From assembly GCA_001724265.1 (NCBI GenBank), contig MEDY01000075.1:62001-89994 (forward strand): DNA of 27,994 nucleotides, read 5' to 3'. The translations under genes were made by a program, and so were the position numbers. The stretch's first letter is position 1. Each line of letters begins with the position of its first letter. Below are positions 1,529 through 27,769 of the stretch, piece by piece. The DNA comes from Rhizaria sp. SCN 62-66. Taxonomy: Eukaryota. The notes below the pieces were generated by a model that worked only from the letters and a program-made list of their open reading frames with translations, did not search any database and was not told the DNA's origin.

Positions 1529-4169
1529 TCAGGACCGGCTCTTGAACTTCCTGCCTAGGTTCCTGGCATTGACCCATGCATTGGCCTCCGCCTGCCCTGT
1601 CCAGCCAGCCATCTCACGGGCCCACACCAGCGGCTGTCGCGAGAGACTCGACAGTAGAAACGGGTCGAATGTCCACGCCACGGCCCAGCGGGTCTGCTCG
1701 CCCTGGGAGTACGCGTACCAAACAACGAGAGGGAAAGCGACGGTTGCCTTTGCTGGTGTGTTCATTGTACTTGTTGCGGTGAACGCCGATAACGCGTCTG
1801 CGCACCCGCAGCAGCGCGGTTTCGCGTGGTGAGTGCTGTTGTTGGTGTGGTCATCGCGAGCTCGAACTGCAGATTGAGCGAGTGCGAGGGTCTGTGGCTG
1901 TGAAGTTAGCACCGTGCGTAGCTGTGCCAAGAAGTTATCCGGCCGACGACGAGACATTACTGCAGTCGCTGCAGTGGCAAGGGAGGAATCAGTTTCAGTC
2001 GCATTTGCAGCCGCCTTTGCAGTTGCATTGGCAGTCGCAGTATCGACTTGTTGGCTGTTGCAGATGCTAAAAACAGGAATTTTAGCAAAGGCGCACACTG
2101 TGCACTGAGCTGCACTCACATTAGCACTGATGCTCTTCTGGTTGATCGGAGTTGCGGTGATATCAGTCTTATTATTGTCGTTAGCAGTCGAGTTGCTGTT
2201 GTTCATGGAGTCGTTGTTGGCCAACGAGTAACACCGACGGCAGTGCGAAAGAGCATGAGCAACTCCCAGCTTCGCCAGCGCTACAGCAGCTGCGTTGACA
2301 ACGCTCAAGTCACGCACGTATGCAAGTACAGGCGCTAAAGAGGCCTTTTTACCGAGCATGGTGGTAAACCATTGCGAGCCGAGGGGATTGGCTGCTGACT
2401 CTGCAATCATCTACAACAATTTTAACAACAATAAATAATACGTACATATAATGAAGAGGAACACACACGTGAGCCAAACTCAGAATAAACGTGCTGAGAT
2501 ATTGAGCAACGCGTTCAAAATAGATTCCGAGTTGGATAGGATTGAAATTGCGCTTTCTGTGATGATATGAACGTACTTTAGTGACGAATGCAACTTCACC
2601 TCCTGGATACGCAAGTTCGCTCTGCGTTGCCGACCACTGCCGCGTCGGATTCTTCGTCATCACAACACGCTGCTGCTGCTCACGGTCACTGCGCTGCTCA
2701 CGGTCACTTGCTGTAATGCTCTCACAGTCGCTGCGTTGCGCGCGGTCACTGCCATGCGCATTGTCCTTGAGTGGCTCCGATTCTGTGACGGAGTCGTAAA
2801 AGGGTGGGTTACACACAGTCATTGCAAACGGAGCCAATTGGCTCTTGATCTGACTCATTTGACTGGTCTGAGAAGTTGAAATCTGACCACTTTGAGCCGT
2901 CTCAGTCTGACCCTGACTAATGTCGTTATCTGCGATTGGAGTCGGTTGGCAAGGGAACTGCGCACGCAACGGCTATGCAGTCAAAATCTTACTCGAGTCT
3001 GCATTAAACACTGCACACACGCGATCACCGCAGGCAACGTTGTTGTGGAAGTTCGACATTGCAGTGGAATTTTGTTTAATGTTCAGGTTCGCAGAGTCAA
3101 TCGACGCGCTGTCGCAGTCACTACCCACCCCCGTGTACGCGTACAGCCTATGCACCATCAACAGCAACACAGCAGTCGCTCCAGTGCCGATGTCAAGCAC
3201 ATGGGGGCGCGGCGCAGCACAGTCAAGCAACGCCTCGGCCAACTCACCAAACTGCAATGAGGACGACGACGACGGCGGCGAGAACGATGACGACAAGTAT
3301 GCTGACTTAGCTGACTCAACAACGGCAACAGCAAAGCGACTGTGAGAGCTACTGGTCACCCTGAATGTTGATGTTGATGCTTTCGTTGCCGTTGCATTTG
3401 CAGTGGTATTGAGATCTGAGTCAGAGAGGTGCGTTGTGAGCGTCGCCCGTTGCAGCCTGCGGACCCACTGGAGATAGTTGAGTGACCGTGGCACTACTGG
3501 GGTGAGATTACCCACAGGTACCATCATTTTCAGTCCGAAATGGTGCCATAACAGGGCTTGCGAGAGCAACAACGACGCTTGTGGGTGCGAGAAGTTAAGC
3601 CTCGGCCGCGGAACGAAGTTAGGTCTCTGGTGAGCAAAAGTAGGTCGTGGGTAATAATCACTCAATCGCTGCATATGCTATGGCGTTGCAGCGTTTGTAC
3701 ACGCAGTTGTTGCTGTGGGGCGCTTAAGACGGGGGCCAATCGACGCTTCAATCTCAGACTCAGCGTTAGCGTCAGTGTTAGCATCAGCCTCAACCTCAGC
3801 CTCTGAGTCATCATTCACAGTCTCAGTCTCAGTTTCCAGCTGCTGATGCTGCTTCCGCTGTTGTTGACGCTGTGGTTGCTGTTGCTGTTGCTTCGGGTAG
3901 ACGAGGAGGGGAGCGAGAGGGGGATACGCTGCAGCCAAGACAGCGAAATCGGGAGGGTTAGCGTCGAAGTAGCCGCGCTCACGCAAAGCTGGGTCGCATA
4001 CAAACGCAGCCGTCGGCTTACACTCAATAGCAACGATCGACTCAGCACCCAACGCGGAATCGGAAGCTGAGGCTGTGCTTGAGGCGGCAGCCGAGCTCAA
4101 AGCATGATGATTGTTGTCGTCGTCGTTGTCGTTGTTGATAGCTGTGAAGGGCGGTAGCGTGGGGAACAT
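1529..4169 (-). CDS. METTL16: METTL16/RlmF-family RNA N6-adenosine methyltransferase; exons 4169-2577 and 2410-1529; ~824 aa; two in-frame TAG codons (3680-3678, 2975-2973)
   Basis: Family motifs are colinear across four track ORFs: PPDFAVLAAAYP; LNFSHPQASLLLSQALLWHHFGL; LTPVVPRSLNYLQWV; LDIGTGA (SAM motif I); GSDCDSASIDSANLN; TVCNPPFY (catalytic NPPF); ELAYPGGEVAFVTK|MIAES; WFTTMLGKKASL; QGEQTRWAVAWTF. The first three ORFs share one frame and are separated only by TAG. The gene ends in TGA TGA. Confidence 0.92.
2411..2576 (-). other. Phase-0 intron of METTL16
   Basis: GTACGT...TTGTTGTAG, 166 nt, AT-rich. Removal gives the conserved GGEVAFVTKMIAES. Confidence 0.9.
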
Positions 4170-4533
4170 CGCGGTTTACTCGAGTTTGTCGTTGCGACAA
4201 CGTGCGTGACGGCCTTCGGAGGAGAGCAGGCAGCGCCCGGAAAGAAAGCGCGAAAAGGCAGTGGCTGCACCGCCGGAGCAGAGGCCGAACGCGAAGAAGA
4301 AGACGAACGAGTTGGTGACGTAGACTTTGTTGGTGTAGGCAACGACCAGGACGGCAGAGAGAAGCGCGAGTAAAATGGAAACAAGGAGAGAACTCACGTT
4401 TTGCATGTCTCGTGCCAAAAATGCGACGTTTGACGATTGCTTGCGATCGTGCAGGAACGAAAGATTTCGCTAACGACCGAATCATGAGCAGCTTCCTGTT
4501 CACCACATACGACGTTCAGTGTCAGAAATCAAA

Positions 4534-4541
4534 CTTTTATA
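4534..4541 (-). promoter_or_regulatory. Candidate TATA box upstream of METTL16
   Basis: TATAAAAG on the minus strand ~370 nt upstream of the ATG. A GTGAGT donor at 4397 suggests an intervening 5'-UTR intron. Confidence 0.35.
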
Positions 4542-4743
4542 GCCATTGATGAATTTATATTGAGGAAAAACTAAAGTATATTATGTATCTAGTTACGGTT
4601 AAAGTTAATAAAAAAGATTTACGACCACATCAAGTCGCAATATGTGCGAGTTATACCTCGCTGTTGTTTAGTCCACGTTCATGCACGTTCTCACCAGAAC
4701 CATTGGCTGCCAATGATTGACTTTTTAGTGCGTGTCTCCCCGT

Positions 4744-6828
4744 TTAGAGAGCAAGCGCAGGCGCCTTTTCATCCTTACTGTTATGATCATCCCCTTCCGA
4801 TATCGGCGCCATCATCGGGCTATTTCGCGCACTCAGCGAGCGAAAGGCGCTCTCCGCGAAACCCGCAAACACGTCATCGTTGGGGTCACTGCCGGGCGCG
4901 GCCAGCAGATCCGTCTGGGGCGCCGCCGCGTACGCGTGCGCACGCGAAGGCAGTTGCTGCGACTGATCCTGGCCGTGGGCAGCGGACTGACTGTGGGTAG
5001 ATAACTGACCGTGGGCAGTGGACTCGGGCATGTCCGCAAAGGGATCATCCAGCGCTAGCACAGCAGCAGTACCTGTGGTGGTAGTACCCGCGGCGGCGGC
5101 GACAGCGGCAGGGGTACTCATGGAGGTACTCGTGGTGCTCACGGTCGCCGCGGCGTCGCCATACGGTCCATACACCGACGGGCGCGCGCGCGCCGGGGAC
5201 GCAGCAGCGGAGATGACCGCGCTTTCGTCCAGTGTAACCACGGTCAGCGGCGAAAACACTGCGTGGGGGGACACGTTGTTGGGCGCGGTTGAAGCCGCGG
5301 TCGCACCAGTTGCGGTCCCAGTCCCAGTCTCGGTCTCGGCCGCAGTTGTCGCAGGGGCTGTCACCGTGTTGGTGATTGAGACGTTGTTGTTGCCGTCGTG
5401 ATTGGCAGGGGACGGGTCACTGTGGGCAAAGACGTCAAACAGGGCATCGCCAGCGGCCATGTCAGCGTTATACGCAGGTGCTGAATCATGACCGTGAGCA
5501 TCACCACCACCGACAACAACATCATTGTTGTTGTTGTTGTGACCGTTATTGGCGATGTTAGCGGCAGCAAAGGCAAGGAAAGGATCGGACTCACTCATGT
5601 TGTTATTGTTATTGCTCGCAGCTGCAAGCGACGACGACGACTGCTGTTGCTGTTGCTGCTGCTGCTGCTGCGGCTTGTTGGCAAAGTGACCGTGAGCAAT
5701 GCGCGCAGTGTCCGGGCCCCGCGCAGTGGCAATCTCTCCCCACTGATCCTGTGCAGCCTGCTCGTTCACAGTCATTATCGCGCTATTGTTATCCGCATTG
5801 ACAGCGCTGTCGATGGCGAGCAGTGCGAACGCGTCATTCAAATCGTTGCCATGACTCGCACTTGCGTTGACGTCGACGTTGTTGATGTTCTTGTCGCTGT
5901 TGTTCACGCTCATGTTCGCGCTCGCGACGTGCGCCGACTCGGCCGGCTTTTCCGCCATCGCTAACTTAAGCCGCCTGCGGTTCTGCACTGCCTGCGTGAC
6001 CGGTTCATCCGCGATACCGTCGTCCACCAACCGCTCCTCATACTGCTCGTCGAGCGTGGCGACGCTCTTGCAGTGTACCACAGGCCCGCCGTCGGTCAAA
6101 CGCGCGGCGAGAGCCTCAGCGCAGCGCTGGGCGGCAACGGCCGCGGCGAATTGGCGCTGGCCGGGCTCCATATCGCGCTTCTTCTTGTCGCTTTTGACCG
6201 GGCGAGAACCTGGGGGCGAGAGGGAGGATGACTGGCCGGCGGCGCCCGACGGCTGGGCCTCGGCGGCCATGGCGGCGGCGATCACGGCTTCGTCGTCCTC
6301 TTCGCTGTCAGAATCAGCGCCGTCGCCGGCAGGGAGACCGAGCTTCTCGAGCTCTTGTTTGGTGACGTAGCGCTCATAGTCGGCCGGGAGAAAAGGATTA
6401 CTAGCCCCAGAGAGCGGTTTAGAGTCCTTGTCGACCATGACGACGCGCAAATCGACCTCTTTCGCGGTGTATGCGCGCGCAACAGTGCCGGCGTCATCTC
6501 TGAGCGTGTGGAAGTAGTCCGCTAGCAGCGTGACGTAAGCCATCACACGCAGGATCTGCATCGTAACCGAGACGTGTTCAGCTAAATCCTCGCGTTGCAG
6601 CTCGCGGCCGAGCGACTTGGCCTCGTCCTGGAGGTTTTTGATCATCGGCGGCAGGAAATCCGAGGTCAGCACCGAGGACGGGGGCGTGTCGCAGAGCACA
6701 CCGCGCAGCTGACGCGTCTCGTCGTATAGTAAGGCGGCGGGGAGGTATGTGAAGCGGCCGCACGGCGGGGTGATTTCGTGCACTGGAGGCAACGGAGCCT
6801 GCGGTGCCCGCTGCTGCTGCGGCCGATA

Positions 6829-6861
<33 letters not shown>

Positions 6862-8010
6862 TTGTTGGTAGTGAGGCTGGATAGGGGGTGCGGCGCGTGA
6901 AGGTGGCATGTTATTGTTGCTGTGGTGGCTCCGGTGGACCGAGACCGGCTGAGGCGGAGGGTAGCTGTTCACAGGGTGCTGATTCGCCGCACTGGGACCG
7001 GCATTGCGCCGTTGAGAGGAGTGACCATGGGCAGAACTGCGGTGAGAAGCCGGCATTGCATAGGGATCCGCCTGTACTTCGCCGTCGATGGTGATGAGCT
7101 TCTCACCGGCCAGAGCTTCGGGAAACAGCACGCCGTTGCTAAGACACTTCTGGTAGATCTTGTCGTAGGAGGGGTATTGAGCACCCAGGGAGGCGGCCCA
7201 GGCTTGGAAGCAGATGAGGATCTTGTCGTAGCGCTCTTGGGCGGATTCGGTGATTTCGTCCATGCGCACGGAGGATTTGGCGAAAAGAGCCTTGATGCCG
7301 GTCTTGGGCTGCTCTTGCGGGTGGCGGATCTGTTGGTGGTGTTGCCAAATAAGACGAGAAAAAAAAGAAGAAGAAGAGAACACAAAGGAACAAGTGAGAG
7401 TTAATACGCCCTGGCATGAGACGAGCGAGTTTAGAAGTGAAACTCAACGCGAAGAAAGTTGTGAAGACAATATAGCTATATCTATACGTATATATTTGTG
7501 GGCCATATTTGCAAGAAGAAACGTACAACGTGGGGGAGTGTCTTATAGAGCTTCTTGAGGTCATCTGGGTTGGCCATATCAGCGCGGAAGAGCGAGCAAT
7601 TCTTCATAAAGATATCCAGAATCTTCAGCGCTTTAATCGCGTTAGCGTGGTAGTTATCCGTGTTGGTGGCGATTTTGACCAGGCAGTCCCGGGCGACTTT
7701 GTTAAGGTCCGGCGCTTGGTTAAGCGTGTCGCAGAGGAGGATGCAGCGTTCCAGAGGGAGCTCGCCGCGGGACTCGCACAGCGTTGTCAACGTCTATAAA
7801 TGAGCACAAAACAACAAAAAGTTAGGGAAATTTGCATAAAATAACATTTGAGTGATAGTTGTAATGGTTTGATTGAGTTTTGAGATGATTCAGTGACGTT
7901 TACGCGCAGGTAGGCCCATTTGAGTGTGTTTGAAGGAGAATTTCATAGTGACGTACGACGCGGATTTCGAGCGCGATTGACTCCCATGTGCGCTGGCCGG
8001 AAGGGTACAT
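4744..8010 (-). CDS. VHS-domain endosomal adaptor (TOM1/TOL-like); exons 8010-7957, 7793-7527, 7329-4744; ~968 aa
   Basis: Two phase-0 GTACGT...AG introns give MYPSGQRTWESIALEIRV|TLTTLCES...CILLCDTLNQAP...AIKALKILDIFMKNC...KTLPHV|IRHPQ...DKILICFQAWAASLG...IYQKCLSNGVLFP, which matches the VHS helix pattern. The long disordered tail has NPF and DPF motifs typical of endocytic adaptors. Ends in TAA. Confidence 0.8.
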
Positions 8011-8828: not shown

Positions 8829-11381
8829 ATGCTCGCCCGCAAGGACGTCATTCAGGAGGGTGACTGGATCATCTTGTACGAGTCGTTCGAGAATGTCCGC
8901 AGTGTCAAAGTCACTCGTGGTGAGCTATATTCGAACCAATTCGGCGCTTACCGCCACAATGACATGATCGGCAAGCCCTATGGCTCCAAGGTACGAACAA
9001 CGCTTCATTCAGCAACCTCCCTTCCACTGTAGCTTCTGTTTTTCCCTTCTCGCTGCTGTGGTAGCGCTCGGCTACCACGTGCGAGGGGTCATCAAAGCAT
9101 GCCCCTAGTCCTGCTCATGACATGTGGCGGTCAAAATGTGCCCTAAAGCCTATGGCAGACACCTTAGTTGCGTGGCTGTCACTCACTCTTCGTTGGCGAT
9201 TATCACAAACTTCAACGTGATGATTGTCAAAAAAGAGTTGGACATTCTCCTTTCTATCTCTTTCTCCTTCTACTCCCATATCTAGTCATATATCTCGCCT
9301 CTAAAACACATTTTACTCACTCTTGCTCTTGCTTTGGCTCTTGCTTTTACTCTCGCTCTTGAACGCACAACACAAGCACAGATTCAGTCGTATGGCAAGC
9401 TCGCTGCCGCGCCACTGACTATGCTGCACCCGACCCCGCAGCTCTGGACTGATGCCCTCAGTCACCGCACGCAGATCCTCTTCCAAGTACGTCTTCACTT
9501 CAAGCACTAACACTCTAAATCATTCGATGTCACAACGATAACGTTCATGGTCGATCGTTCGGAAAGAAAGCCGAAAACGAGCGTTACTCGCTTTTTCTGT
9601 GAATGTTGGAAATGATCGTTTTTAATGCAAAAAAGTCGATATTCTGATCTCTATTGAGGACAAATTGCTCTAAAGTACACCTTAAGCGGTGTGCTGTGAT
9701 CCAACATAACAAAACAAAACAAACTCGAAATTAAGTGCGTATCAACCTAAATAACGTAATCTAACTAAATCTCTCTTCGTTTCTTTGTTTTTGCTTGTTT
9801 CCCAGATGGATATCTCGCTTGTGATGTACCACCTCCAGCTCAAGCCCGGCAGCGTGGTTATCGAGTCTGGCACCGGCTCCGCCTCGCTGACCCACTCCCT
9901 AGCCCGCGCCGTCGCGCCCCATGGCCACGTCCACACGTTCGAGTTCAACTCTGACCGCGTCGCCAAGGCCCAGGTCGACCTCGAGCGCAACGGCTTAACT
10001 TCTGTCGCGACTGTCCGCCACCGTGACGTTTGCGCAAACGGCTTCCCGTTCTTCCCCGACGGCGTCGACGCTGTGTTCCTCGACCTCCCCACGCCATGGT
10101 TGGCCGTGGATGACGCGCACCGCTCGCTGCGGCCGCAGGGTCGCCTCTGCTCCTTTTCACCGTGTATTGAGCAGGTCCAGCGCACCTGTGTGCGCCTCGC
10201 TGAGCTCGACTACGAGGTACGTGTTTAAAGATATTAAAACTTGGTATATATCAACAAAGTGAGCTCAAAGCAACAAAAACAGTATATATTTGTTTGCATG
10301 TCATAGATGTAGGCAAATATGAACTGTTTTTGTTTTGTTCTGTGTTCATGCTTGGGCCTATCGAAGCCGTTTCTACTCCTGCTTATGATCTGGAGCGGTC
10401 AATGTGTGCCCCATAGTAAAAGCTGATGTATTTGCAACAATCTAGACATACGTGTCTAGAGGGCAGATATGGTGGCGACGCCTCTTCGTTGGCGATTGTG
10501 ACAAACTTACACGTTACGATCGTCAAAAAAGAAGCAAACAGTTCTTTTACCATCTCTCTCTGTTTTATCTTGTATAAGATAATTACATTAGATATTTTCT
10601 TCTCTAGTATTATATCTTAAACATTAGCTCATATTTCAACTTTATTTTTTTGTTTCATCGCGATTTATTTCATTTGTAGGAGATTATCACGATCGAGGTT
10701 CTGCAAAAGACGATTGAGGTGCACCGGTCTAGTCTAAGGCCCTTTGACTTCAACGCCTCTCGCCCAGGCATCCACGCTGGCACTAACCCGCACAACGACA
10801 AGAACAAGAAGAACAAGTTTAACAACAAGCGTAACGCCGCCGCCGCCACCGCTGGCGCTTCTCCTTCGACTGATTCGACTGACGCTGCCGACTCTTCTGC
10901 TGTTGCTGCTGCTGCTGTTGCCACTGAGGATGACTCTGCTGCAGCGGTTGATGCCGAGGCGAAGATCGCCAAGACTAGCACCGACGCCGCCGCCGACGCC
11001 ACCGAGTCGGCCGCCGGCGAGGACGTGCAGCTCCCCGCCCCCGCTGCCACCACCGATGCCGCAACCACCGCGACTGAGACGGCGACTGCAGCCTCGACTG
11101 ATGCGGTGGTGGCCAGCGGCAGCTTCTGGTCCCCTTTGACCCCGGTGCCCCAGGCGCTCGTCACTGCGCCGGCGCCGTGGCTGGTCTCAAAGCCGCGGCC
11201 CGTGATGCGTGGCCACACGGGCTACCTCACTTTCGCCCGCAAGGCCTGCACTCCCGCCCCCGTCAAGCCCGCCACTGAGGCTTCCGAGGTCACTGAGTCC
11301 AGCTAGTCCAGTGCCAGCGCCAGTGCTGAGGCTGAGGCTGAGGCTGCTGAGACTGAGGGTGGTGCTCCGATGCAAGAGTAA
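8829..11381 (+). CDS. TRM61: tRNA (adenine-58-N1)-methyltransferase catalytic subunit; exons 8829-8990, 9382-9486, 9806-10216, 10680-11381 (would end at 11306 if TAG were a stop)
   Basis: Motifs IQEGD, FGAYRHNDMIGKPYGSK, LHPTPQLWTDALSHRTQILF, VIESGTGSASLTHSLARAVAPHGHVHTFEF, DAVFLDLPTPW, CSFSPCIEQVQRTC and GHTGYLTFARK. Three phase-0 GTACG...AG introns restore one frame. Confidence 0.95.
9097..9247 (+). ncRNA. Candidate intronic box H/ACA-like snoRNA, copy 1 (TRM61 intron 1)
   Basis: Paralogous to 10366-10543. The 3' stem TGGCGATTATCAC (9194-9206) pairs with GTGATGATTGTCA (9217-9229), there is a lower stem ACTCTT/AAGAGT, and ACA lies at 9242-9244 just before the pyrimidine tract. The H box is degenerate (AAAGCC). 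Confidence 0.6.
9603..9707 (+). ncRNA. Candidate intronic box C/D-like snoRNA (TRM61 intron 2)
   Basis: A perfect 8-bp terminal stem ATGTTGGA/TCCAACAT directly flanks a C-like ATGATCG and a D-like GTGA. Internal D' CTGA is at 9644-9647 and C'-like TTGAGGA at 9654-9660. Confidence 0.55.
10366..10543 (+). ncRNA. Candidate intronic box H/ACA-like snoRNA, copy 2 (TRM61 intron 3)
   Basis: A 5' hairpin is followed 14 nt later by the H box ATAGTA (10413-10418), then a long middle hairpin. The 3' stem TGGCGATTGTGAC (10490-10502) pairs with GTTACGATCGTCA (10513-10525), and ACA lies at 10538-10540. Confidence 0.65.
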
Positions 11382-11786
11382 ACCACAACAAAACGCTTTA
11401 TCATCAGAGCAAGCGAGCTTTGTTTTTGAGCTATGATACTTTAGAAACTTTCTTTACCTAACTAAATGATAATAATATTATATCCGTGTGTTATATAGTC
11501 ATCCCAAAAGAATACACATCCATTCTTTCTTTCAATTCAATTCCATCATGCTCTTTGCTTCTCTTGTCACTCAACTGTAATTTGTCTAACCGGTAAATGA
11601 CATGAAGTATAGATGAGAACAGAACGATGTGTATTTGTTAGTATCTTCGTGGATACACTGACTGATGATATAGCTATATAATAACGCAATTTAGTAGTGC
11701 TTTAATATTCTTCTGTTAACTTCTTTCAGTCAAATAAAGTACTCTTGGACTGAGATATATCACTGCAAGTTCTCTGCATCATCGAC

Positions 11787-14598: not shown

Positions 14599-14647
14599 CC
14601 CCAAATCGCCACAGAGTCAGAGTAGGTTTCACTCATTGATATAAAAG
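14599..14647 (+). promoter_or_regulatory. Candidate snRNA-type promoter (USE-like element plus TATA box)
   Basis: CCCCAAATCG (14599-14608), which resembles the plant USE RTCCCACATCG, lies 31 nt before TATAAAAG (14640-14647). Confidence 0.3.
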
Positions 14648-14667
14648 CATGCGTTGAGTATTATAGT

Positions 14668-14885: not shown

Positions 14886-15789
14886 TCTGTGGAGTGAGTC
14901 AAGAGCTGTTGTTTGTAACGGCTTTGAATTTACTTGGCCCTCGGATGCTATCATGCTCACATGTCGGCGCGAATTTCACCGAGAGCGCGGGGACATTGGG
15001 ATAATGCGTGTAACTATTTTTAGTTGAAGCTGTGTTTCTTGTGGTGTTGTTCGTGGCGCTGTTGAAACGGTCATACGCAAACTTGCTCAACGTCGTTAAA
15101 CCTCCGCTAAGCTCACACTCAGTCTGCCATATGCATGCTGTGAACAGATGCAACTCACGATCACGCCGCGGTATACTTGACTATATGTGTTTTATTGCTA
15201 GGTCACGTTGTTTTGTCGTAACTTGCGCTTACATTGTCGTTCTGCTGCCTTATTTAGTAACTGTAGTTGCTCACTTAAGAAGAGAGTGGCGAGATTTTCA
15301 CGCGCATAGACAAGGTGTATCTTTATATTTTCAAAAGTGGTGATGACAGATTATGAACACGGAATAAATAAACATTACACCTGTCGGTTGTGCGTATCCG
15401 CTTCAATTTTGTGTCAGTAGACGGCGAGATACAAGATCTTGGACAAATCTTGCAATCGTGCGCTCGCTCTCGAGTCAGTCGAACGCCACCAAGAGGATGA
15501 CGCGTTCATGTTGTTAACATCGTCGTTTAGATGTATAATTACGCGTTATGCTAGAAAATATGCTTGCACATTTCGATTTATTATCCGCACTACTGATGAC
15601 GGACGCTGTGATGCGTATATCTAATCCTCAACTCCATGCATTGTGACTGACACTTTGCCGCCTCTCCTTCGCTCCCAACTTGCTTTTCTCCCACCAGATC
15701 GACCTCAATCCACACATAGCTTGGCACCACATACCAAAAAACTTGTTTATTTCCTGTCAACGTTGATTCCGCGCTTGCAACGGCTCTCC

Positions 15790-18700
15790 ATGAGCGCATC
15801 AGGCGGCTCTACGCCCCCCACCCCACCTCTGCACGCGACTTCCACACCGCAACAACAGCTGCAGCAGCAGCAACAGCAGAGGCAGCCCCCGCATCACCCC
15901 TTACTCTCCCACTCCTGTCCCACTGCCCCGGCCCCCGCCAGCGTTGCTGTTCTTCCCCCAGCTCTCGCTCTTGCGCTGCTCTCGACGGTGACCGCTGAGC
16001 CAGTACTCGCCGCCGCCGCCGCCGCCACGCTGCCGCGCTCAGCCTCCGCTTACCCCGCCCGTGGCCACGCTGCGAGTGCGAGCGCGACCAACGCCAACGC
16101 GAGTGCTGGCGCTGCGTGCGGGTTTGATTGGTGTGACGTGCCGAGGCCAGATCAAGTTGCGCTGTATATTGGCGCTGCGATAATCAAGGTGACCGTACCC
16201 TCCTGGCCTCCTCAGTCTCAGCCTCAGACCGCGAGCGCGAGTGCGGGTGCGAAAAGTAACGCCGTCGCCAACTCTAATAGCAACAGCAAAGCGACTGTGG
16301 CCAGCGACAAAGTGACTGTGAGCGCAGTACCAGTGAACACGTGGACGGGAGCTGTGTCGGGTTTACTGCAGCAGTTGACTTAGCTCACAGCCACGAAAAC
16401 AAAGCCGCCTTTGCAGTCACGGTCACAGGTGCCCGTACACCCGGGTGACGGTGAGCAGCAGCAGCGCGAGTGGGGGCTAAGCCTTGCGCATACGCTGCCG
16501 GCTCTCGCGGTCTCACTGCGGCAGCTCTCAGCTGCAGTCGACAACAACAACAACATTAACAACAACAGCAACAACAACAACAACAACAATAACAACAAGA
16601 GCGCTTATAGCAGCAGCAGCAACAGCAATAACAACAATTTTGCGACTGCCACCGCGCCTGCCACCGCGACTGCGGCTGCCACCGCGGCTGCCACCGCAAC
16701 GGAAGCGACCGTGTTTCTCTCACTTCGTCCGCTGAGCAGTGATGCCGCACACACGAGCAGCTCGGTCGCTCCCGACAACGGTAACTCAAGCTCATGTGTT
16801 ACCGGCCGTTGCACTTGCTGTACTCGCCTGTACATCAAAACAACACCGGCGAAAGCAACTGCGCCAGCGACTATGGCAGCGACGACGGCGTGTGAGATTG
16901 GTTTCTCGAACGATGCAGATTCTGCGGTTGCGCTCTGTATTCGCATTCCGCAGCAAACGCTGACTTACGCACAGTCACTTGTTGGCGCCGCGAGTGTAAG
17001 CGACCACAGCGACAACGCTCTCTGCTCACAGTCACCCGGCGGCGGCTCACAGTCACTTGCTTGCTCACAGGCACTTGTTGCGTGGCCGTCACAGCTCTCT
17101 CTCTCTGCAGATGTTGCCCGCTGTGTCGCGGCACACTGGGGGGTGCTCACAGTCACTCAACAAGCGCCCACGGTCACTCAGTCATCAGAAACCACGGTTA
17201 CTCAGTCAGCAGAATCGACAGTCGCAGCGAGGCAAGCGCGCCGCACGTCAGATCCCAAGTCCAAGACAGATGAGGCTGCGATTGAACTGGAGGTAACAGC
17301 ATCTGCGTTCCGCTTTAGCAGTACAATTGCTAGCGCTAACAACAAGTGTGGACTTCATGCGGACGATTTATTTCCATCATTATTGTCATCACCGTCATTG
17401 TGTCTCCCGCTACACTCGCTGATCGCTCCTCCGCTGTGTTTAAGTGCTCCCGCGCGCAGTCTAAGTGCTCCGCCTCCGTTCATCGACCCGCCGCAGATCG
17501 AGGGGCGGCTCACCTTCCTGAGGCGGCTTGCATTATTGCCCTCGCGTGCACGTGTTCTGTCAGCCGATGGCAGTCTTGCGTCAGTGCTAGAAGCTGTATT
17601 AGGCGCATACTTAGCGCAAAAAGTCCGCAAAACAGCATTCCACGTCGCCAATAGTAATAACAAAAACAACATCATTACTAAGGGTGTTCACGCAAATGCG
17701 CGAAGTAACGCTCTTGTTACCACTGGCTCTGCCGCTGCCGCTGCCACTGCTGCTTCCGTTGCTGCTGTTTCTGTTCCAGTTCTTGGGTGGCAAAAAGCGA
17801 CTGCGTTGTCAGTCCAGAAGCGGCTTAACTTTCTGGGACTGTGGGCAGCAGTGGTTGAGGCTGCGAGTGGCGTCCTGCTTTCGTTTGATTTCGACCAAAC
17901 TATCACTAAAATCGACATTATTCACTCAAACAACAGCATCATCATCAACAACAGCAACAGCAACAACAACAGCAACAGCAACAGCAACAACGGTAACAGC
18001 AACAGCAACAGCAAGACCGCGATTGCGATTCCGACTCACGCAAAGCAGCAGCAGTTGACTCGCTTACGCGGTGGCCGCTGCTCCCGCCTGGCGCTGTCTC
18101 TGCTCTCGCTAGCCGGAGCACGTCTGAGTATCGTCACAGCACAGCCTCCGTCGGCGACCGTGATGCTCGCTTTGAGGCGTGAATTGGCCGGTTTGGGGCT
18201 GGCTGAGCTGTTTGGCGTGGCGGCATTGGGCGATGAAGTACTGCGCATCTCGCACTTCAAGGACTCAAAGCAGTCCGCGGCCGAGGCCGACGGTGGTGAT
18301 GATCACAAAGAGCAGGGCGAGGCGAAGGGCGGCACAACTGATGTCCTTGTGAACGATGCCGATGATGGCGATGATCACGACGATTTTGATCTCACGGTCA
18401 CATCCGCCGTCAAGGGCACAGTCTCAGCCACAAAAATCAGCAATAACTGCAACACTATCAACAACAACGCGAGGTGCAACGAGGCTGATGCTAATTTGTG
18501 TAATACTGCGAACAATAATACGTTTATTGCTGATTCTGACTCTGAGTGTGACTGTGAGCACAAGCACTTAGATTCCGGAGACTACTTACACTCCACCCCC
18601 TTAGTGCGTCTCCTCACTGAACTCAGGTCCTGGTCTTGCCACAATGCTCTCAGTGCGCACACCAATGCAAGTACCTCTGGTCTCAGTACCTCTGGTGGCA

Positions 18701-18800
18701 CTTATATGCCCGCGCTGTCACTGCACAGGCAAATGACGCGCGCACTCATCCTACTCACAACTCTCGGCGGCGGCGGCGGCCCCGGCTCAGCCTCGCAAAG

Positions 18801-18835
<35 letters not shown>

Positions 18836-21800
18836 CAAGCTCTTCTAACCCCTCGATGGCGAGCCCGAGCGCGAGTGGTAGCTGCTCTAGTGGCGGCGGT
18901 GGTGCGACAATGACGACCGAGACGCTGCGTGCCGACGAGTTTGCACGGATGCGGCTCTCTTCACTTACGTTCAACACACAAAAGCAACAAATGCTGCTGC
19001 TGAAGCAATATCAGCAACACACTCAAAACGCAGGCGGCTTACCTTCTGTGGCGATCGGCGTAACTTCAGTGTCTCAGTTCGAGTACCCACGGTCACAAGC
19101 CGTCTTAGCGACTGTATACTCCAACATCAACAACAGCACAAGCTCGGGCGTTGGCGCTTCTCCACAGCAACAGCAACAGCAAGAGCAGCAGCTGTTTTCT
19201 GTTGCGCCTCCAGCGCTGCCTCCGTGGTCTGTCTCGTTCGACTTGGTACCGGCGCCTGCAGCAGCGGAATTGCAAGAGGTCTTCGCCTCTGCTAATGCGT
19301 TTACTCCAGCCTCACGCACTACCAACAACAGCAATAACAACAACAGCAGCACTGCTGCCGGCTCGAGGGCTAATGGGGGCAGCAACTCGGCCTCTGCGAA
19401 TGGGAGCACACGCTCTGGGTCTGGTACAAATACTGGCGGTCCTAGTAGCAACAGCAACAGCAACAGCGCTAACGACGTCGTCCGTTACACCGTTCACGGC
19501 ACTCCGTTACTCCCTCAAGCCATCTCCACATCGACAACAGCGAGCGACGCGCACAATTCGAACTCGAGCGCGACTGCTGCCTCTGAAATCGCGCCGCTGT
19601 CGCTCCCTCTGCTGCTGCAGTGTCCGTCGCTATGTCCCGCGCGCGCGCTGGCGGCCTGGGCTGTGCCCGCGACCGCCGTCGCCGCCGCCGCAGCCTGGGC
19701 GCTGGCGCGCCGCCGCCGCGACAGGCTCGGCCTGCGCCGCGCGAGGCCGCCACAGTCGCAGGCGGAAGGTACTTACCCAACGGGTACTTACCCTGCAGGC
19801 ACGCAGGCTGTGGGTGCGAGTACCACAGGGACACCGCGGCGGCGCCGCCAAGTTGTGACTCCGGTGTCGCAGGTGCAGTCGCTGCCGCCGCCGCCACTTC
19901 CACGCGCGCGCGACAGCGACTTCGACACTAACAATAATAGCGGTGTTCACGGTCAAGCGCAGAGTTTGAGCATGACGACTCCGCGTGCGAGCTTCAGCTT
20001 GGAGCGCCGGCCGAGTCTGAGCGTTGGCTCCACCGGGGGCACGCTGCGGCGGCGGCACAGGCTGCGCGGCGGGGGCGCGCTGCTCACGGTCACTGCGTGC
20101 GGCGAGGCAGGTGCGAGGCGCGTGCCCGCCTGCCAGGTGATTAACATGGCGCTGTTTGGGGCCAGGCGGAACCCGTTACACGTCAAAGGTACTTACCGTG
20201 ACGGCAACAAGAACTCTGCTCATGGAAATGTAATTATCAAGAGTTCCAGCTCGAGTGTTGACCAGCTTGAAACAAGCGCAAGTTTTGCTTCGAAGTCGAG
20301 TGAGCTGCATGTCTCGAACGATGGCGATCGTGATAGCAGTGATTCTGACTCTGAGACTGCGGGCGCGAATGTAAGTAGTGCAACTGTAAGTGCTCGTCAG
20401 TGTTTGTTGGTGCCGTGCGCTGTGCGAGTGACTTTGCGGACATACCCCGCGACGCTCACTCTCGTGCCGACGCCATCTAACGCAGCGACAACACCAGGCA
20501 CAGCAACAGCTACAACAGCAGCGGCAGCAGCGTCTGATGGCAGCTCCAGTGCGAGCGCCACTGATGCTGACGCGAGGCAGATTGACGGAGAGAAGCCTGC
20601 GTTGACGACTGTGATGCGCCGCTCATCTTTAGCATATCCAAACTCTCAATTTTCACCACAAAACGCGTTTTACCACAGCAATATCAACTCAGCCACCAAC
20701 ACAACCAGTGAGAGTGGTAAAAGCAACGCCAATGCGGTTGTCGCTGTGCCGCCTCAGTCCCAGTCGCAGTTTCATCAGACGCAGACCGAGGTCGAGCTGG
20801 TTATCCCAGTCACTTTGACCGTGAGCGGCGTCAGTATCAAGCTGCCACCGTCGTGCGACCGCGTTTTCTGGACCCCCTCTTCGATCGGCGGCGCCAACGC
20901 GAAGAGTAGCATGAATAACGCTGCGAATAGGCACGGTGCGTTGAGCTGCGGCGACGATGTGCTGTGCTCTGGACGCGATCTAGCGGTCGAAGACCTGTTC
21001 ACGACTCTTAACACGAACAACAAGAAGAAGCACAACAAACAGTTTAATCTGATCACACATAAGCCTGATGCCACCAGTGTAAGCGCGAACGCGTATGGCG
21101 GTACTGTTTGTAGCAAGTGCTCTTGTAAGAAGTCTTAGCACGGTGGCGTTGGTTCTGCCTTTGCGAGGTCGGCGTGCAACTGTCCCCGCGGTGTCAGTTT
21201 CACTTGCAGCAAGTCACAGTCGCACCGCTGTGCCGGTGATCACGGGCAAAGTGACCGTGAACCGGCGCGCGCGAGTGACTGCGAGCAATGCCGCTCTGCA
21301 CCGGCATTGTCATCATCTTCAGCAAATGCCGCTCGCAGTGGCCGCCCGGCTTGTTTCTGCTTTCTCTCAGCAGTCGCAGTTGGCGAGGGCGTGATTTCAC
21401 GTGCGTTCGCGCACGGCGTCAACACTGCTGTTGCTGAGCTTTTGGCTGCGAAGCTGCCTGGAGTTGTTGCACGCTTTAACGCGTCATACAGCAACGCGAC
21501 GCACAGTGCGAATAATAGCACGGCTGGGAGCAAAGACACTCACGACTCTACTGCTGCCGCTGCAGACTTACCTACTCCAGCGACACTGACCGCGACGGCT
21601 GCAGCCGTGGATTCGGAAAAGAGTGGAGGTGCAAGTACAAGTGCGGGTGCACGTGTAAGCAGCGATGTAAACAGCAGTGTAAGTAGTGTTAGTGGGCTGA
21701 CATCTGCGGACTCAGCAGAGCGTGCGCGGGCGACGAAGGCGATTTCGCGCGCAATCGCGGGCATGCTTGTCACTTCTGGCGGCAAGAGCAAGGGCCGGAA

Positions 21801-24800
21801 GAGCTACGAATGCAAAGACAACATTAGCAACGCCGCGGGCACTGACGACAGCATGAGTACTGAGAGTGAGAGAACCGGTGGGTTGCATGTTGTGATTGAT
21901 CTCACGCGCAAGTCTGTCTTTGCTCTCGGCGAAGACGACGACAATATCAATATCAGTAATGGCTTCTTCGGCAGCAGCAGCGACAGCGTTGCGGCGACCG
22001 CGAATGCGAGTTCGAATGCTAGTGTGACTAAAGAAGGTGAGGGTGCCAAGACTGTCGAGTGCTGGCTTGGTGCTTTATCTTACGCTTCCGCCAATCAAAG
22101 TCAGCTCAAAACCGACACAAGCACAACTCCTACGAACGCGGACGCGCACGCTTGCGCGGACAACATTGGGCTTAAGAAGAGTAACATTGCTGTAGATGTC
22201 AACTCGAACGCGCCTGACAGCGACGATGAGGACCGCAGCTGTGCTTTCACTGACAGCGATGCCGCCGTCAGAACGCACGGCACGCGCGATTCTCACAGTC
22301 ACCCCGCCGCCACGACCACTGGTCTCGCTAACACGGCTGCAAATGCGGCTGGGGCTTCAAATGCGACCGCCGGTGTGAGCAGTGGCGTCGCGCCGATTAT
22401 TGTGTTCCCCAATTCAACCACGAACGCTGCCTCGTCTGCGACGCAGATGCCGCCGCCGCCACCGCCACTGCTGTCGACAACTGCGCACGCGTCTGCTGCC
22501 CACGTTCACTTTTTCGCTGATCCGGCGACTCACAGTCAATCCCACGCGAATACGCTGACCGCTGATGCCCCCGCGACCGGAGCAAGCTCTAGGTTCAGCG
22601 CTAATTATGACGGCAATCCAAACGTGAGCAACAACAACTGCACCGGCGAGAGCAGCAGTTTAAGCGGGTTCAGGTACCGTCCGCGCGCGTACAGCGTCAC
22701 TGCTGCCGCCGCCGGCGCCGCTGCCGGGCGCAACTCGAGCGACTCCAATAACAACAAAAACAGTGGCGACAACAACAGGGCGGCGAACGCTGCGGCGGCT
22801 GCCTTTGCTGCTTTTGCCGCTGCGAACCCGAGCTCGAACAAGAGCGCCAGCGCGAGCTCTAACGCTAAGATTGATCCTGAAGCTGGCGCTGGGGCTGGGA
22901 CTGGCCGGCGTCGGTTCGGCAGTTTTAGCGGTTTTATCGGCAACAACCCTGGTGACGGAAGCAACAAGTACCAAACGATGCATTTGTCGCCGTTGTCCAA
23001 GTTTCAGCAGCAACAATTCCACCGTCAGTATCAGCAGCAGCTGTGGCAGCAAGATCAGGAGCTCCAGTCGCAGTTGCAACTGCAGCAAGGTGGCTTTGCG
23101 ATTGGAGGCGATAACAACGTGGGGTTAGATGAGGCTCTGTATAACTCGTTTGTGGGCGAGAACACACTTTCATTATTGATGGGGGCGCTTGCTCGCGAGA
23201 CGGCGCCTGCTCAGGCAACAGTTATTTCCGACTTCATCTTAACGCAGCAGCAGCAACCACAACACAGGCATAAGCTGCATCACTCCTCAACAGCAGAGTC
23301 TATCGGCGCTACGGCTAATCCGAACTCCAAGCCTTTTGTGACGACGACAACCCGCTTCATTGGCAACTCCGCTGCGGACACAACGAATAACACCAATGCT
23401 CGTGCACACCATGCCAGTTTTACTGGTACGGTTCCTAATGCGCTGCCTCTGACAAAACACCGTCGCTCACACAGTAGCAGCAGCATCAACATCTCCAGCC
23501 TGATTCCGCATCCGTCATCGTTTGACATGAGTTTCCTTGCTCACAAAGACGCTACACCCAGTAAAGATAGGAGTGCCCGTAGAGGTGGTGTTGATGCAGG
23601 AACCCATGCCCACGAGGCCGGAACACATGCTCCTCGCGCTCCTGCTGTTGCGGTTGCGGCTGGCGCTGCGGTTAAGCCGCCACCGGTGCCTCCGCGCCCG
23701 CACTCGCGAGCGGGCTCGCCGTCGCGCTCGCAGCAACAACACCAGCCGCAGTCGCGGGCGCAGTCGCCGTCGCTTTTGTCGTTGCTGGCGTATAGGCCGG
23801 TTCCCGTGGTGGTTCCCTCACATCTCGCTAGTGATAAGAACCTGAGCGCGACCTACGCCCGGAATCTAAGCGCATTCGAGCATAGAAACGCGGATATGCG
23901 TAAGAAAGCGAGTGCGAGTGGGAGTGTGACTGTGCACGCTGGCGCGATGTCGACACCGTCGCTGATGCACTCAGCAACCTTCTCTCCCGAGGCCGTGCCA
24001 GAGCTGTTCCCAACAACGTTGGCCTCGGCGCCCGCACATAACGGTATTGCGACTCGTGTTGATACGAGTAACGCGCAACGTCAGCCACAGCCTGCTTCTT
24101 TGGGTGCCGAAAGCCGCCGCAGTTTTTCTGGCACCAACGTGGTGACTCTCAGTGATAGCAACAATCAGAGCCACATTGCCGTGAATGGAAACCACATCGA
24201 CGACAGTGACAGCGACAGTGAGGAAGACCCAGAGCTTGCCCGTATCAAGAAGACGACGAAAGCCTTGCGCCGTACGAGTGCAACGATCGCGGCCGCCGCA
24301 GCCGCCGCCACCGCCGCAGCTGCCGCTGCCGCAGCAGCTGAAGCCGAAGTGCGTGAGCTCGACACAGACACAGCTACTGCTGCTGGGAATGCAAATGGCG
24401 CGCAGGCGGAACCTCAGTTAAGCCAGCAGTTCTCCGCTGCTCCACTGCCTTCGTCGTCGTCGTTGTCGTCATCGGTGGTGGTGTCGTTGTCGACTGCGTC
24501 GCTGCCGTTGCCGCGCGCCCAGTGGCGCTCGCTGCTGTTCACGCTCGCACACCGGCCTCCGCGCCCGACCCCAGTCGCCCCGTACCTCTCACTCATCACC
24601 AACAACACCACCAATCCGAGCGCAGTCGCGAGCAAAGCCCCGGCGAGCTCCAGTGGCTCTGGCTCGAGCGTCGGTGAGTTTTCGGGACAGGACTTCGCGG
24701 GCGTCGACTTTTCTGGACTCGACCTTGCCACCACGCGCCCCGCCACGCATCCTCTGCTCTGGCCCTTACTCTCCTCGCCCCAACTGCGCTTGCCCGTCTC

Positions 24801-25481
24801 GGCCGCCGCCAACGTGATGTATCTGCCCGTGCGGCTGCATCTCTGGCGCGGTGCCCGTGTTGCACAGCTCGGATTTTGCACTGCAGCCCGGTACAACAAA
24901 CCGGAGGCGGTGGAAGTGCTAATTTTTGCCGAGCGAGTTGCGCGCGCGGCCGCGTTGGCGACTGCGATGAGCAATGCCAGCAGCTGCGGCAGCGGCGCTG
25001 GCGGACGCGGTCGCCGAGTGAGGGGTGCGCGCAGTCGAGGTAGCTCTGACGACGACGACGACGACGACGACGGTGGCGACGATAATGCCAACGTTGACGA
25101 CGAGAGCAAGCCAAGCTCGCCTGAGGCTGACGTCACTGCAAAGACTGTGACAACGACAGTTGATTTAACTAATGCTGCTGCTGCTGTTGTTGCTACTGCT
25201 CCTGCTGCTGCCGTCGCTCCTGCCTCAAGCGCGATCACTTCCGCCAATATCACACAGGCGCAATCGCGGCCACAGCAACAGGCGCCGTCGCCATCGCGGT
25301 CGCAAGTTAAGCCGCAGCCCGAGTCCGCTTCCGAGTGGAAGCCAGAGGTACCCTCCCGGTCCCGGCCGCATCAGCGGCGCCCGGTGCCTCCGATCCCCGC
25401 GTCGCCTGCTCACAGTCAGACTCGGCTTGGCGTCAACACTAGCATTAACAACACTGTGAGCGTTGACAGCGGCCGCAATAG

Positions 25482-25518
<37 letters not shown>

Positions 25519-26766
25519 CGGAGCCAGAGCCAGAATTGCGACGTTGCATTGCCGCCGCTGCTTTCGTCATTCGGCCACGCACCGCTGCCTTCAACTCGAC
25601 ACTCAACGTTAGCAACGCCAGCAACAGCAGCAGCAACAGCAGCAGCAACAGCAGCAGCAACAGCAGCAGCAACAGCAGCGCCTGCTGCGGCAGCGACGAC
25701 ACCTGTGCTGGCAGCGTTGACAGCAGCGGCGTCTGCAACAAGTGCTGCTGGGACTGTAGGCTCAGTGCCGCCCCCGGTTGTCGTTGTCGTCGCCCCTGCT
25801 CCTAACGCTGCTGTTGGCGTGACTGCGCATGCCAGCGCTATCGCGCATGCTGCTGAGAGCGGCGCGACGTCTCTGCCGCCGCCATCGACGCCACTGTCTC
25901 GGTCACAGTCGCCGTCTGCTGCGAGCCCAAACGCGGTCACCACCAATACGAGCGCGAACGTGACGAGTCCGAGAGCTGCTGTAAGTGGCAATGCAGCTAC
26001 CACAGCTGCCACAGCTCTGTCGTTTGACTTACCGCCGCCTCCGCCTCTACTTGACGACCTGTTCGCCCCTGTGAGCACTGCGTACAAGGACCTCAAATCG
26101 GACGACGGCGGCGGCGCATCTTCTGCGCTATCCCACTTGCGGCCGCGACCGCGCTCTCTGTCGCGCACGCGCTCGCTGTCGCTGTCGCAGTCTCAGTTCC
26201 CCGCACTCATGACCACCAACCCCGCGGCCGCCGCGACGGCCGCTGCGGCCGCGGCCGCCGCTGCCAGTGTCGGCGGCGTTGGCGAAGGAACGCTGGTCAC
26301 GCTGCGTGTGTCGCAGTCAGTGGCCGCCGCTGCGGGCCAGCAGCAGCAGCAGTCGACGGTTGGCAGCGACGGCGGCGCCTCAGCGTGGCCGCGCCGTGTG
26401 TGCTTCGTGGACGATAACAGTGATAATGCGTTCAACGTCTACAGTCACTTTGCGATGCGACAGGCGACGCAGCGCGAGAAGATGCAGAAAGAGCAGTTGG
26501 CTGAGCAGCAGCAACGGCGTGGCCTTGTTGGCGATGGTGAGAGTCAATGTCAGGCAGCGTCGCTGTTGACGCCGGATCTCTCCAGTTTCTGCTCAGGAGA
26601 GGAGCTGGAGGGGGATTTGTGCAGTGTGCACGCGTTCTGGTTCCCACCGCCGGAGGGCGGGAAAGGCGAGCAGGCGGATCCGCTGTGTCGCGAACTGTTC
26701 GAGCGCATGGCTGAGTTGCAACTTACTCTTGAGCAGCAGCAGCTACACCAACAACAGCAAAGATAA
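15790..26766 (+). CDS. Giant (~3,658 aa) low-complexity protein with a dispersed HAD-superfamily domain; in-frame TAG at 16381-16383 and 21136-21138
   Basis: Track ORFs 15643-16383, 16411-21138 and 21307-26766 share one frame and the gaps contain no stop other than the two TAGs. HAD motifs occur in order: LSFDFDQT (17878-17901), SIVTA (~18130), YNKPEA (~24892), CFVDDN (26401-26418). First ATG at 15790; ends in TAA followed by AT-richer sequence. Confidence 0.75.
16542..16640 (+). repeat. Coding (AAC)n/(AGC)n microsatellite, poly-Asn/Ser
   Basis: Imperfect AAC runs encoding NNNNINNNSNNNNNNNNNK...SSSSNSNNNN. Similar tracts occur at 17930-18012 and 18803-18835. Confidence 0.9.
25480..25533 (+). 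repeat. Coding (AGCCAG)9 hexamer repeat, (SQ)n
   Basis: Nine units, one of them the variant AGCCGG. Confidence 0.95.
25621..25680 (+). repeat. Coding 12-mer repeat (GCAACAGCAGCA)n, (ATAA)n
   Basis: About five tandem units are directly visible. Confidence 0.9.
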
Positions 26767-27044
26767 TTGCAGTCCTTGCACCTGTGTTAGTTGCCGTTTG
26801 TCAGCAACAGATGGCAGCGTCTATGTTCGCGCTGCCGTGCTGTTTTTGTCATCGAACAGAAAATGTTATTTAGTACGACGACAATCTCAACGAAGAACTT
26901 TTTGATTTTATGTCCATTTTTAGAACGGTTGTGTACAGATCATTATAGCTTTTATGATCGTAATACACTTGAACTTACCACGTCTAAACATGCTGACGAC
27001 AAGTTTTGTTACAATTTGGCTCTGTGTGCAAAGATGTACACGCA

Positions 27045-27769
27045 GGTATCGTGAATTGTTTGTCAAAAACGAGAATCTAAGTACTTGGCGACCTCAACGT
27101 CACAGTTGCAGTGAGACCATTGTGATGCCTGCGCTCAACGGTCTACGTCTCGAGTGAGAAGCTTGAAACAGCATCTCATGCGAGAAAAACACGATGATCC
27201 TGGAGGTGGTTGAAAACGACCATGATTTCCAAATCACCTCCAAAAACACCTGCACCAATGCGCGAGGAGTTCTCACCTCTGACGAAGGCGCGCTCAGTGA
27301 TGTCACTCTTGAGCTCTCCCCGGTCGGCATGACCCTGGACGACCTTCACGCGCGTGGCCGCGTCTCCAACCCCGGGGCCGTGTCGCACGACGTACTCGAC
27401 TTCCTCAAGGACTTACACGCCGGCGGCCTCGTCTTCATGAACCTGCGCACGTCCAACATCATGCACCACGACGTCTTTGACGACGAAAAAGACCCAGGCA
27501 AATTTCGCAGCACGTACCACGTCATCAACTTTAAGTACGTGTGCCCCGAGGGCGAGGAGGTACCCAAGAGGCTCAGGTACTGGGACACTCTCAAGAATGC
27601 TGGGTTTAAGACGGGTGAGAGCCGGTCGTCCTAGCTCATGGGTCTCGTGATGTTGGGCGGAATTATGGCCGAGTGCAAGCTGATAGTTACGGGACGATCT
27701 ATTAGTACCTCTAAGGTGTGCGCCATGGATTGCTGGAGCACAGTGTCGCCGGTACTCTTAAAACGCTAA
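27045..27769 (+). pseudogene. Degenerate protein-kinase-like sequence resembling the kinase module of Crinkler/RHS-type (CR) proteins
   Basis: LELSPVG...DVLDFLKDLHAGGLVFMNLRTSNIM...YHVINFKY matches L.PVG...LH..G.VHRD.R..N+...+IDFE, with both catalytic Asp residues changed to Asn. After TAG 27632 the frame continues LMGLVMLGGIMAEC (subdomain IX-like) to TAA 27767-27769. An in-frame TGA at 27164 breaks the 5' side. Confidence 0.55.

Follow-up and report, generated by a model that had tools for sequence, protein, structure and literature searches.

In-frame TAG codons in a eukaryotic contig suggest a young or incomplete reassignment of UAG

The window, its genes, and the in-frame TAG codons

The stretch of DNA analyzed here, called the window in the following, comprises 27,994 nt of contig MEDY01000075.1 (assembly GCA_001724265.1, positions 62,001 to 89,994 of the forward strand), which is deposited under the name Rhizaria sp. 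SCN 62-66. The window belongs to a eukaryotic nuclear contig with a guanine-cytosine (GC) content of about 55%, and the subject of this study is a small number of TAG triplets that lie within the open reading frames (ORFs) of its genes. An earlier note on this DNA had interpreted these triplets as sense codons of a variant nuclear code that retains UAA and UGA as stop codons. Five genes were recognized, two of which make sense only if the ribosome moves past at least four TAGs or if these are taken out of the mRNA. The genes and the TAGs within them are listed below (window positions).

1529-4169, minus strand: METTL16-like RNA methyltransferase; exons 4169-2577 and 2410-1529, intron 2576-2411 (GTACGT...TAG), end TGA-TGA
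3678-3680, minus strand: METTL16 in-frame TAG no. 1, residue 166, after the conserved N-terminal motif (residues 67-80) and before the catalytic domain
2973-2975, minus strand: METTL16 in-frame TAG no. 2, residue 401, in the variable loop between DIGTGA (residues 328-333) and NPPF (residues 456-459)
4744-8010, minus strand: VHS-domain gene, control without in-frame TAG; exons 8010-7957, 7793-7527, and 7329-4744, end TAA
8871-11381, plus strand: TRM61 (GCD14); exons about 8871-8999, about 9397-9486, 9806-10216, and 10680-11381, end TAA (11379-11381)
11304-11306, plus strand: TAG in the C-terminal tail of TRM61, 24 codons before the TAA
11787-14264, minus strand: CRT-like transporter, control without in-frame TAG; Pfam CRT-like E=4.4e-53, end TGA
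15790-26766, plus strand: giant low-complexity orphan ORF, 3659 codons counted from the first ATG, end TAA
16381-16383, plus strand: giant ORF TAG no. 1, next ATG 164 codons downstream
21136-21138, plus strand: giant ORF TAG no. 2, next ATG 209 codons downstream

The METTL16-like protein matched the Pfam family Methyltransf_10 (E=1.6e-21), and its best sequence matches in the PDB were human METTL16 and psilocybin synthase; the full-length METTL16 of this organism has no protein database record. TRM61 was identified by a Pfam GCD14 match (E=1e-56), by tblastn with relatives, and by the RNA joint 9486>9806 in runs X5 and X9. The Pfam VHS match was weak (E=2e-5), and two joints of the VHS gene (7329>7527 and 7793>7957) were found in the RNA of run X5. 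The CRT-like product of 825 amino acids is already present in the protein database (P0003).

All six TAG positions and strands given in the earlier note were recovered in the sequence. The statement that TAGs interrupt continuous frames at four loci held for the four sites in METTL16 and the giant ORF and probably for the TRM61 site, but the sixth TAG, at 27632 in a small ORF near the end of the window, was not shown to be an in-frame sense codon and was left out of the counts. The five gene models contain 6645 sense codons, and their frames include 5 TAGs, not a single TAA or TGA, and no frameshift, which bears out the earlier statement that the internal stops of the intact genes are exclusively TAG. 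For comparison, TAG occurs 80 times, TAA 142 times, and TGA 303 times in the 13290 off-frame triplets of the same sequences. TAA and TGA, which never occur in frame, are the terminators of all 5 complete genes, and the individual ends (TGA-TGA for METTL16, TAA for VHS, TAA for TRM61, TGA for CRT, and TAA for the giant gene) are the ones that had been proposed.

Reading frames across the TAGs

Under the standard code, the frame of the giant gene would be divided into three parts (15625-16383, 16384-21138, and 21139-26766), which encode 252, 1584, and 1875 amino acids, respectively. When TAG is read through, a single frame of 3713 codons results. At the stop density of the off-frame triplets, the probability that the second and third parts stay open by chance is about 1e-28 (1584 codons) and 1e-33 (1875 codons), respectively. 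As no ATG follows the two TAGs for 164 and 209 codons, although the frames are open, the three parts do not represent three abutting genes. The giant protein consists largely of runs of Asn, Gln, Ala, Ser, and Thr. Its former label as a "HAD" protein could not be upheld, as no Pfam family was matched, even though the sequence shows a DxDxT-like motif and, towards the C-terminus, one that contains DD. Among 1.84 billion representative proteins, only two self fragments of the giant protein and no other relatives were found, both in single-member clusters. One of them (P0141) ends exactly at TAG 21136, and standard-code gene callers have thus already split genes of this organism at TAG in public protein databases.

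The METTL16 frame of exon 1 is likewise divided into three parts by the standard code (3678-4175, 2973-3677, and 2349-2972, with 165, 234, and 207 codons) and becomes a single frame of 608 codons when TAG is read through. The continuity of 252+1584+1875 and of 165+234+207 codons in the same frames supports the decoding of UAG. In the alignment with relatives, the order of elements is the invariant N-terminal motif, TAG-166, the S-adenosylmethionine-binding DIGTGA, TAG-401, and the catalytic NPPF. The conserved motifs are therefore split across both TAGs, and a functional enzyme can be made only if both are passed.

TAG-401 is situated in an indel-prone loop, in which the closest relative (P0008) is two residues shorter. 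When the alignment is anchored on the next conserved Pro, the relatives have A, V, L, Q, or I in the TAG-401 column. TAG-166 lies in a lineage-specific insertion, and only a weak extension of the phmmer alignment pairs it with an Ile of psilocybin synthase. Both alignments lean weakly to an aliphatic residue such as Leu. In the region around TAG-166 (residues about 72-183, window 3620-3960, minus strand), a low-complexity insertion of about 95 residues is present after the N-terminal PPDF-type motif, and it is followed, near TAG-166, by an apparent second, degenerate copy of the motif.

In the case of TRM61, only 24 codons lie between the TAG and the TAA. These codons have a coding score of 0.28, compared to a mean of 0.07 for coding and of -0.44 for off-frame sequences, and the 24 codons past the TAA score worst in that frame. 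The AT-rich untranslated region begins after the TAA, and close relatives of TRM61 have tails of 35-41 residues with acidic ends that resemble the extended tail of the window protein. The TAG in the TRM61 tail is thus probably read through, although a dispensable tail that was recently truncated at the TAG could also account for it.

Introns and independent assemblies

Contigs derived from RNA (X5, X9) revealed three spliced introns (7330-7526, 7794-7956, and 9487-9805), and two further introns were mapped by homology. All five are 163-463 nt long and start with GTACGT at the following positions.

2576, 7526, and 7956, minus strand: GTACGT starts of introns
9487 and 10217, plus strand: GTACGT starts of introns

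The GC content of the three RNA-confirmed introns is 36-39%. In contrast, the surroundings of the five TAGs of METTL16, TRM61, and the giant ORF have an exon-like GC content, no GTACGT is found upstream of them, and none of the five lies inside a mapped intron. Two other TAGs (2411-2413 and 10677-10679) were considered as in-frame sense codons and rejected, as both are 3' splice sites; 3 of the 5 mapped introns end with TAG. In the 19,950 exon bases of the sense strand, the hexamer GTACGT does not occur once, although 3.9 occurrences would be expected (P0=0.02). These results suggest an unusually strict GTACGT donor that is avoided by exons. A literature search on GTACGT donors gave no taxonomic lead.

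Contigs assembled from public runs of two other studies (X3, X4) were used as an independent check on errors of the assembly. In X3, record 2 (3617-5239) covers TAG 3680 and record 1 (1500-3616) covers TAG 2975, both with 0 differences. In X4, record 12 (10986-12921) retains TAG 11304 and record 16 (20590-21400) retains TAG 21136, and the differences in these two records lie elsewhere. No contig break occurs at any of the four TAGs in X3 and X4. TAG 16381 is spanned by none of the contig pieces listed, and no differing letter was reported there. The four covered TAGs are unchanged across studies and are therefore neither assembly errors nor rare alleles. These results show that the TAGs truly exist, that they are fixed in the populations from which different studies took their samples, and that they are located outside of introns, in uninterrupted coding sequence on which the function of the genes depends.

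Public runs that match the window are metagenomes from bioreactors, wastewater, activated sludge, and fuel cells, which were filed from 2015 to 2025. The window is present at least in part in 11 run rows of 7 studies, and 4 rows contain at least half of the sampled words. One of the matching runs consists of poly-A RNA (X9), and a second run of the same study is also listed. In the bins that contain TAGs, most of the RNA depth comes from low-complexity repeats that other organisms also carry. Two stretches (2675-2710 and 15845-15880) have a very high summed contig depth and many loose ends. Both are trinucleotide repeats, which draw contigs of unrelated organisms, and the depth there is therefore uninformative about this organism. 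A 3-base indel at 2691 is found in all four runs.

Probable decoding of UAG as an amino acid

We assign a probability of roughly 0.6 to the explanation that UAG is decoded as an amino acid in a young or incomplete reassignment, with UAA and UGA as stop codons. In-gene UAGs would then be translated and translation would end at UAA and UGA. The most likely mechanism would be a tRNA with a CUA anticodon, which would pair with UAG but not with UAA, and this tRNA would outcompete a release factor, presumably a weakened eRF1, that recognizes UAG poorly. TAG is rare and depleted, it occurs at poorly conserved positions, and it is absent in a distant relative (see below); for these reasons the reassignment is read as young or still incomplete, possibly ambiguous, rather than old and fully exploited. 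The decoupled code proposed in the earlier note was thus supported in part: at least four TAGs must be passed, and TAA and TGA are the only terminators, but there are only five of these in the window, and the validity of the code throughout the genome is inferred. A more extended picture is tentative, and we regard it as rather unlikely in its entirety. It would be that of a lineage of wastewater protists early in a stop-to-sense change of UAG, which uses the codon in essential genes, but rarely, avoids it, and perhaps still terminates at it, while relatives with about 50% protein identity have the standard code; the inserted amino acid would possibly be a new one for nuclear codes in which UAG alone has changed, and with Tyr or Trp, TAG would have a normal share among the codons of that residue (4.7% and 9.6%, respectively).

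Nuclear codes in which UAG has changed but UAA has not are known from a handful of lineages. Codes of this kind, with UAA and UGA as stops, have been reported for the rhizarian exLh (UAG=Leu) and for Iotanema spirale (UAG=Gln) (PMC5304391), and phyllopharyngean ciliates with UAG=Leu or UAG=Gln have also been described (PMC11687900), so that the precedents named in the earlier note are indeed published. The window resembles exLh and Iotanema in that only UAG occurs in frame and UAA and UGA terminate, and also in originating from a protist that is uncultured or poorly known and was recognized from sequence data alone. The difference lies in the usage: for exLh, 384 in-frame UAGs in 71 genes are reported, many of them at hyperconserved Leu columns (PMC5304391), whereas the genes of the window have 5 among their 6645 codons, and conserved columns are not affected by any of these. 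In the phyllopharyngean ciliates, UAG accounts for 6.5-31.8% of the codons of the reassigned amino acid, 78-91% of the genes have an internal UAG, and suppressor tRNA(CUA) genes are reported (PMC11687900). Common features are that UAG is decoupled from UAA, that the code was found via metagenome assemblies, and that the tRNA(CUA) found there is predicted here. The window differs in being part of a GC-rich (about 55%) multi-gene contig with introns of 163-463 nt, and such a contig fits poorly to the macronuclear DNA of ciliates. The comparison suggests that the code of the window is of the same kind as those of exLh, Iotanema, and some phyllopharyngeans, with a much lower codon usage, as in a young or incomplete reassignment. 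Ambiguous stop/sense codes, which are reported for Condylostoma, karyorelictids, and Blastocrithidia, involve two or three stop codons (PMC4967479, 10.1101/2022.04.12.488043, PMC12153298). A stop triplet may serve both as sense and as stop codon in the window as well, and a low, context-dependent use would fit the depletion of TAG, but only UAG is affected here.

A report of a UAG-sense code in a non-ciliate eukaryote from wastewater was not found in the limited literature collection that was searched. Each new case of a UAG-only change tests the mechanistic coupling of UAG and UAA. If the low usage of TAG reflects a young or ambiguous stage, the organism would represent a natural intermediate of codon reassignment, which is predicted by theory and has rarely been observed. 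As the organism is found repeatedly in public runs from wastewater and bioreactors (2015-2025), including poly-A RNA, the claim can be settled with existing data.

Evidence against sense decoding and alternative explanations

Several results weigh against sense decoding of UAG. The reliable sites are few, namely 4 robust TAGs in 2 genes and 1 probable TAG. In-frame TAG amounts to 0.075% of the codons, which is one eighth of the off-frame frequency and about a tenth of the usage published for UAG-sense lineages. If assigned to Leu or Gln, TAG would make up 1.0% or 1.5% of the respective codons, far below the values for published UAG-sense ciliates. None of the TAGs is located on a well-conserved alignment column, and therefore, no amino acid can be assigned. 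The earlier argument that random nonsense mutations should also have yielded TAA and TGA turned out to be weak. At the codon usage of these genes, TAG is the outcome of 52-55% of the single-base paths to a nonsense codon; for this reason, the restriction to TAG is of limited statistical weight, and it would arise by chance with p=0.04-0.05 if five sites are counted and 0.075-0.09 if only four are. Among the RNA contigs listed (X5, X9), none spans a TAG, and no differing letter was reported there. tRNA genes were found neither in the window nor in three metagenome loci (L001-L003). Two of these loci (L001/L002) represent one organism in two metagenomes, and its long frames (21 kb, an estimated 5000 codons or so, including a gene of 2000 codons and exportin-1) contain no internal TAG downstream of plausible starts; the TAGs that occur are located before the first Met or at likely splice acceptors. 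At the rate of the window, the probability of finding none is P(0)=0.02-0.05, and the internal-TAG trait is probably not shared at this distance. Moreover, one L001 gene ends with TAG-TAA in tandem, and the small ORF at 27194-27634 of the window may end at its TAG.

Some of these results would equally be expected if UAG were still a terminator, but an inefficient one, at which near-cognate tRNAs read through weak contexts, resulting in an ambiguous stop/sense codon without formal reassignment. This applies to the 8-fold depletion, the TAG-TAA end in the relative, and the possible termination of ORF 27194-27634 at TAG. In addition, C follows 5 of the 6 in-frame TAGs, in contrast to none of the 5 real terminators (Fisher p=0.015), and C after the stop codon is the weakest termination context in eukaryotes. 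However, TAGC is common in this DNA anyway (56% of the off-frame TAGs in coding sequence, 38% of all TAGs), and against this background, the signal is not significant (p=0.03-0.18) and suggestive at most. A motif of the CARYYA type, which is known from the readthrough literature on plant viruses, was not visible in the sequence contexts of the TAGs, and the z-scores of ten RNA folds, which covered the surroundings and the downstream sequences of the five TAGs (-1.30 to +1.25), gave no indication of an RNA structure beyond that of shuffled sequences. METTL16 and the giant gene contain two TAGs each, so that the losses would multiply unless readthrough were nearly complete, which amounts to reassignment. 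Inefficient termination is regarded as an unlikely explanation of the TAGs.

The high share of TAG among the nonsense outcomes (52-55%) is also in line with fixed recent nonsense mutations, which would have turned METTL16 and the giant gene into young pseudogenes or truncated alleles and shortened the tail of TRM61. The unconserved position of every TAG, the orphan status of the giant gene, which lacks detectable relatives, and the lack of internal TAGs in the relative L001/L002 would be compatible with this as well. However, both genes, which lie within the same 28 kb, would have to have been hit twice independently, and about 3460 codons have remained open past the first TAG of the giant gene. 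The same alleles are present in runs of different studies that were filed in 2017 and 2025, and the neighboring genes are spliced and transcribed normally. The lack of frameshifts and the 0 TAAs and 0 TGAs in 6645 codons rule out decaying pseudogenes and make fixed nonsense alleles improbable.

Editing of the mRNA was also considered. In filamentous ascomycetes, adenosine-to-inosine (A-to-I) editing converts UAG to UIG, which is read as Trp, and genomic interruptions of otherwise intact genes by TAG alone are the signature of this system, for which a preference for U at position -1 is reported (PMC11156358, PMC10776026, PMC4817773, PMC5496914). The restoration of premature UAGs by this or another editing system would be in line with the TAG-only interruptions in the window, and as Trp codons, TAGs would have a normal share (9.6%). 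In addition, the TAG at 27632 may lie, when aligned by eye, on the Trp/Tyr position of the kinase motif DxWSxG. Several results are at odds with editing. Restorative editing is reported for 71 genes per fungal genome (PMC10776026), whereas 2-3 of 5 neighboring genes would be affected here, a far higher density. No hairpins beyond those of shuffled sequences surround the sites, and introns of 163-463 nt with GTACGT, together with an all-environmental TRM61 clade (in a tree without fungi), do not point to a filamentous ascomycete. An A>G exchange (T>C on the minus strand) is not listed at the TAGs in the RNA runs, in which coverage of these positions is unproven. Editing thus appears to be a quite improbable source of the TAG-only pattern.

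The last explanation, that the TAGs belong to introns of an unusual kind (short or in-frame) or result from errors of assembly or sequencing, is highly improbable: each TAG does have a GT dinucleotide 10-29 nt upstream and could itself serve as a 3' splice end, but the length of most candidate mini-introns is not divisible by three although the frame is kept, the real introns of this DNA are long, AT-rich, and start with GTACGT, and independent assemblies agree at four TAGs.

The small ORF with TAG 27632

27194-27769, plus strand: small kinase-like ORF; TAG 27632-27634, GTACGT hexamer at 27535

The earlier note had treated this ORF as a kinase relic with an in-frame sense TAG. Between 27194 and about 27534, where the GTACGT hexamer follows, this ORF has a good coding signal, and the score then falls to -0.14 before the TAG and -0.18 after it, so that the TAG may be intronic, a true terminator, or a sense codon. 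As a terminator, it would give UAG a dual role. Neither a Pfam family nor a kinase among the PDB sequences was matched. The standard-code product of 146 amino acids has an identical entry in the protein Atlas, where language-model and structure comparisons gave short kinase-like clusters (RIO/Kdo/APH/Pkinase) with a score of 0.94, which is to be taken as a lead only. The AlphaFold model of the read-through form has a predicted local distance difference test (pLDDT) value of 33 and is useless.

Relatives and placement of the organism

A profile scan of metagenome contigs with the CRT alignment retrieved only the distant relative L001/L002 and, in addition, L003, and profile scans of genome contigs gave no eukaryotic match. 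The CRT of L001/L002, which is located on a contig of 191 kb, is 48-50% identical to that of the window, and the gene order around CRT is not conserved between L001 and the window. Exportin-1 without internal TAG (11776-12732, minus strand) and the membrane-protein gene that ends with TAG-TAA (17325-21027, minus strand) are both encoded on L001. Closer relatives are known as database proteins alone, with identities of 77-79% for TRM61 and 73% for CRT.

A TRM61 tree with 43 rows was calculated from the window protein and 42 sequences out of the best 120 of 2035 hits. The window was placed in an all-environmental clade of 7 rows, which had a Shimodaira-Hasegawa-like approximate likelihood ratio test (SH-aLRT) value of 97 and was separate from plants, animals, Capsaspora, and chlorarachniophytes. 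The named rows did not include fungi, amoebozoans, stramenopiles, alveolates, or ciliates. The deposited placement in the Rhizaria was not supported by this tree.

X4 contains a second contig with TRM61 exon 2 (window 9886-10003), in which 12 of 118 bases differ, each time in the third position of a codon. A strain or species sister to this organism co-occurs in the X4 sample, and the codons orthologous to the TAGs could be obtained from it.

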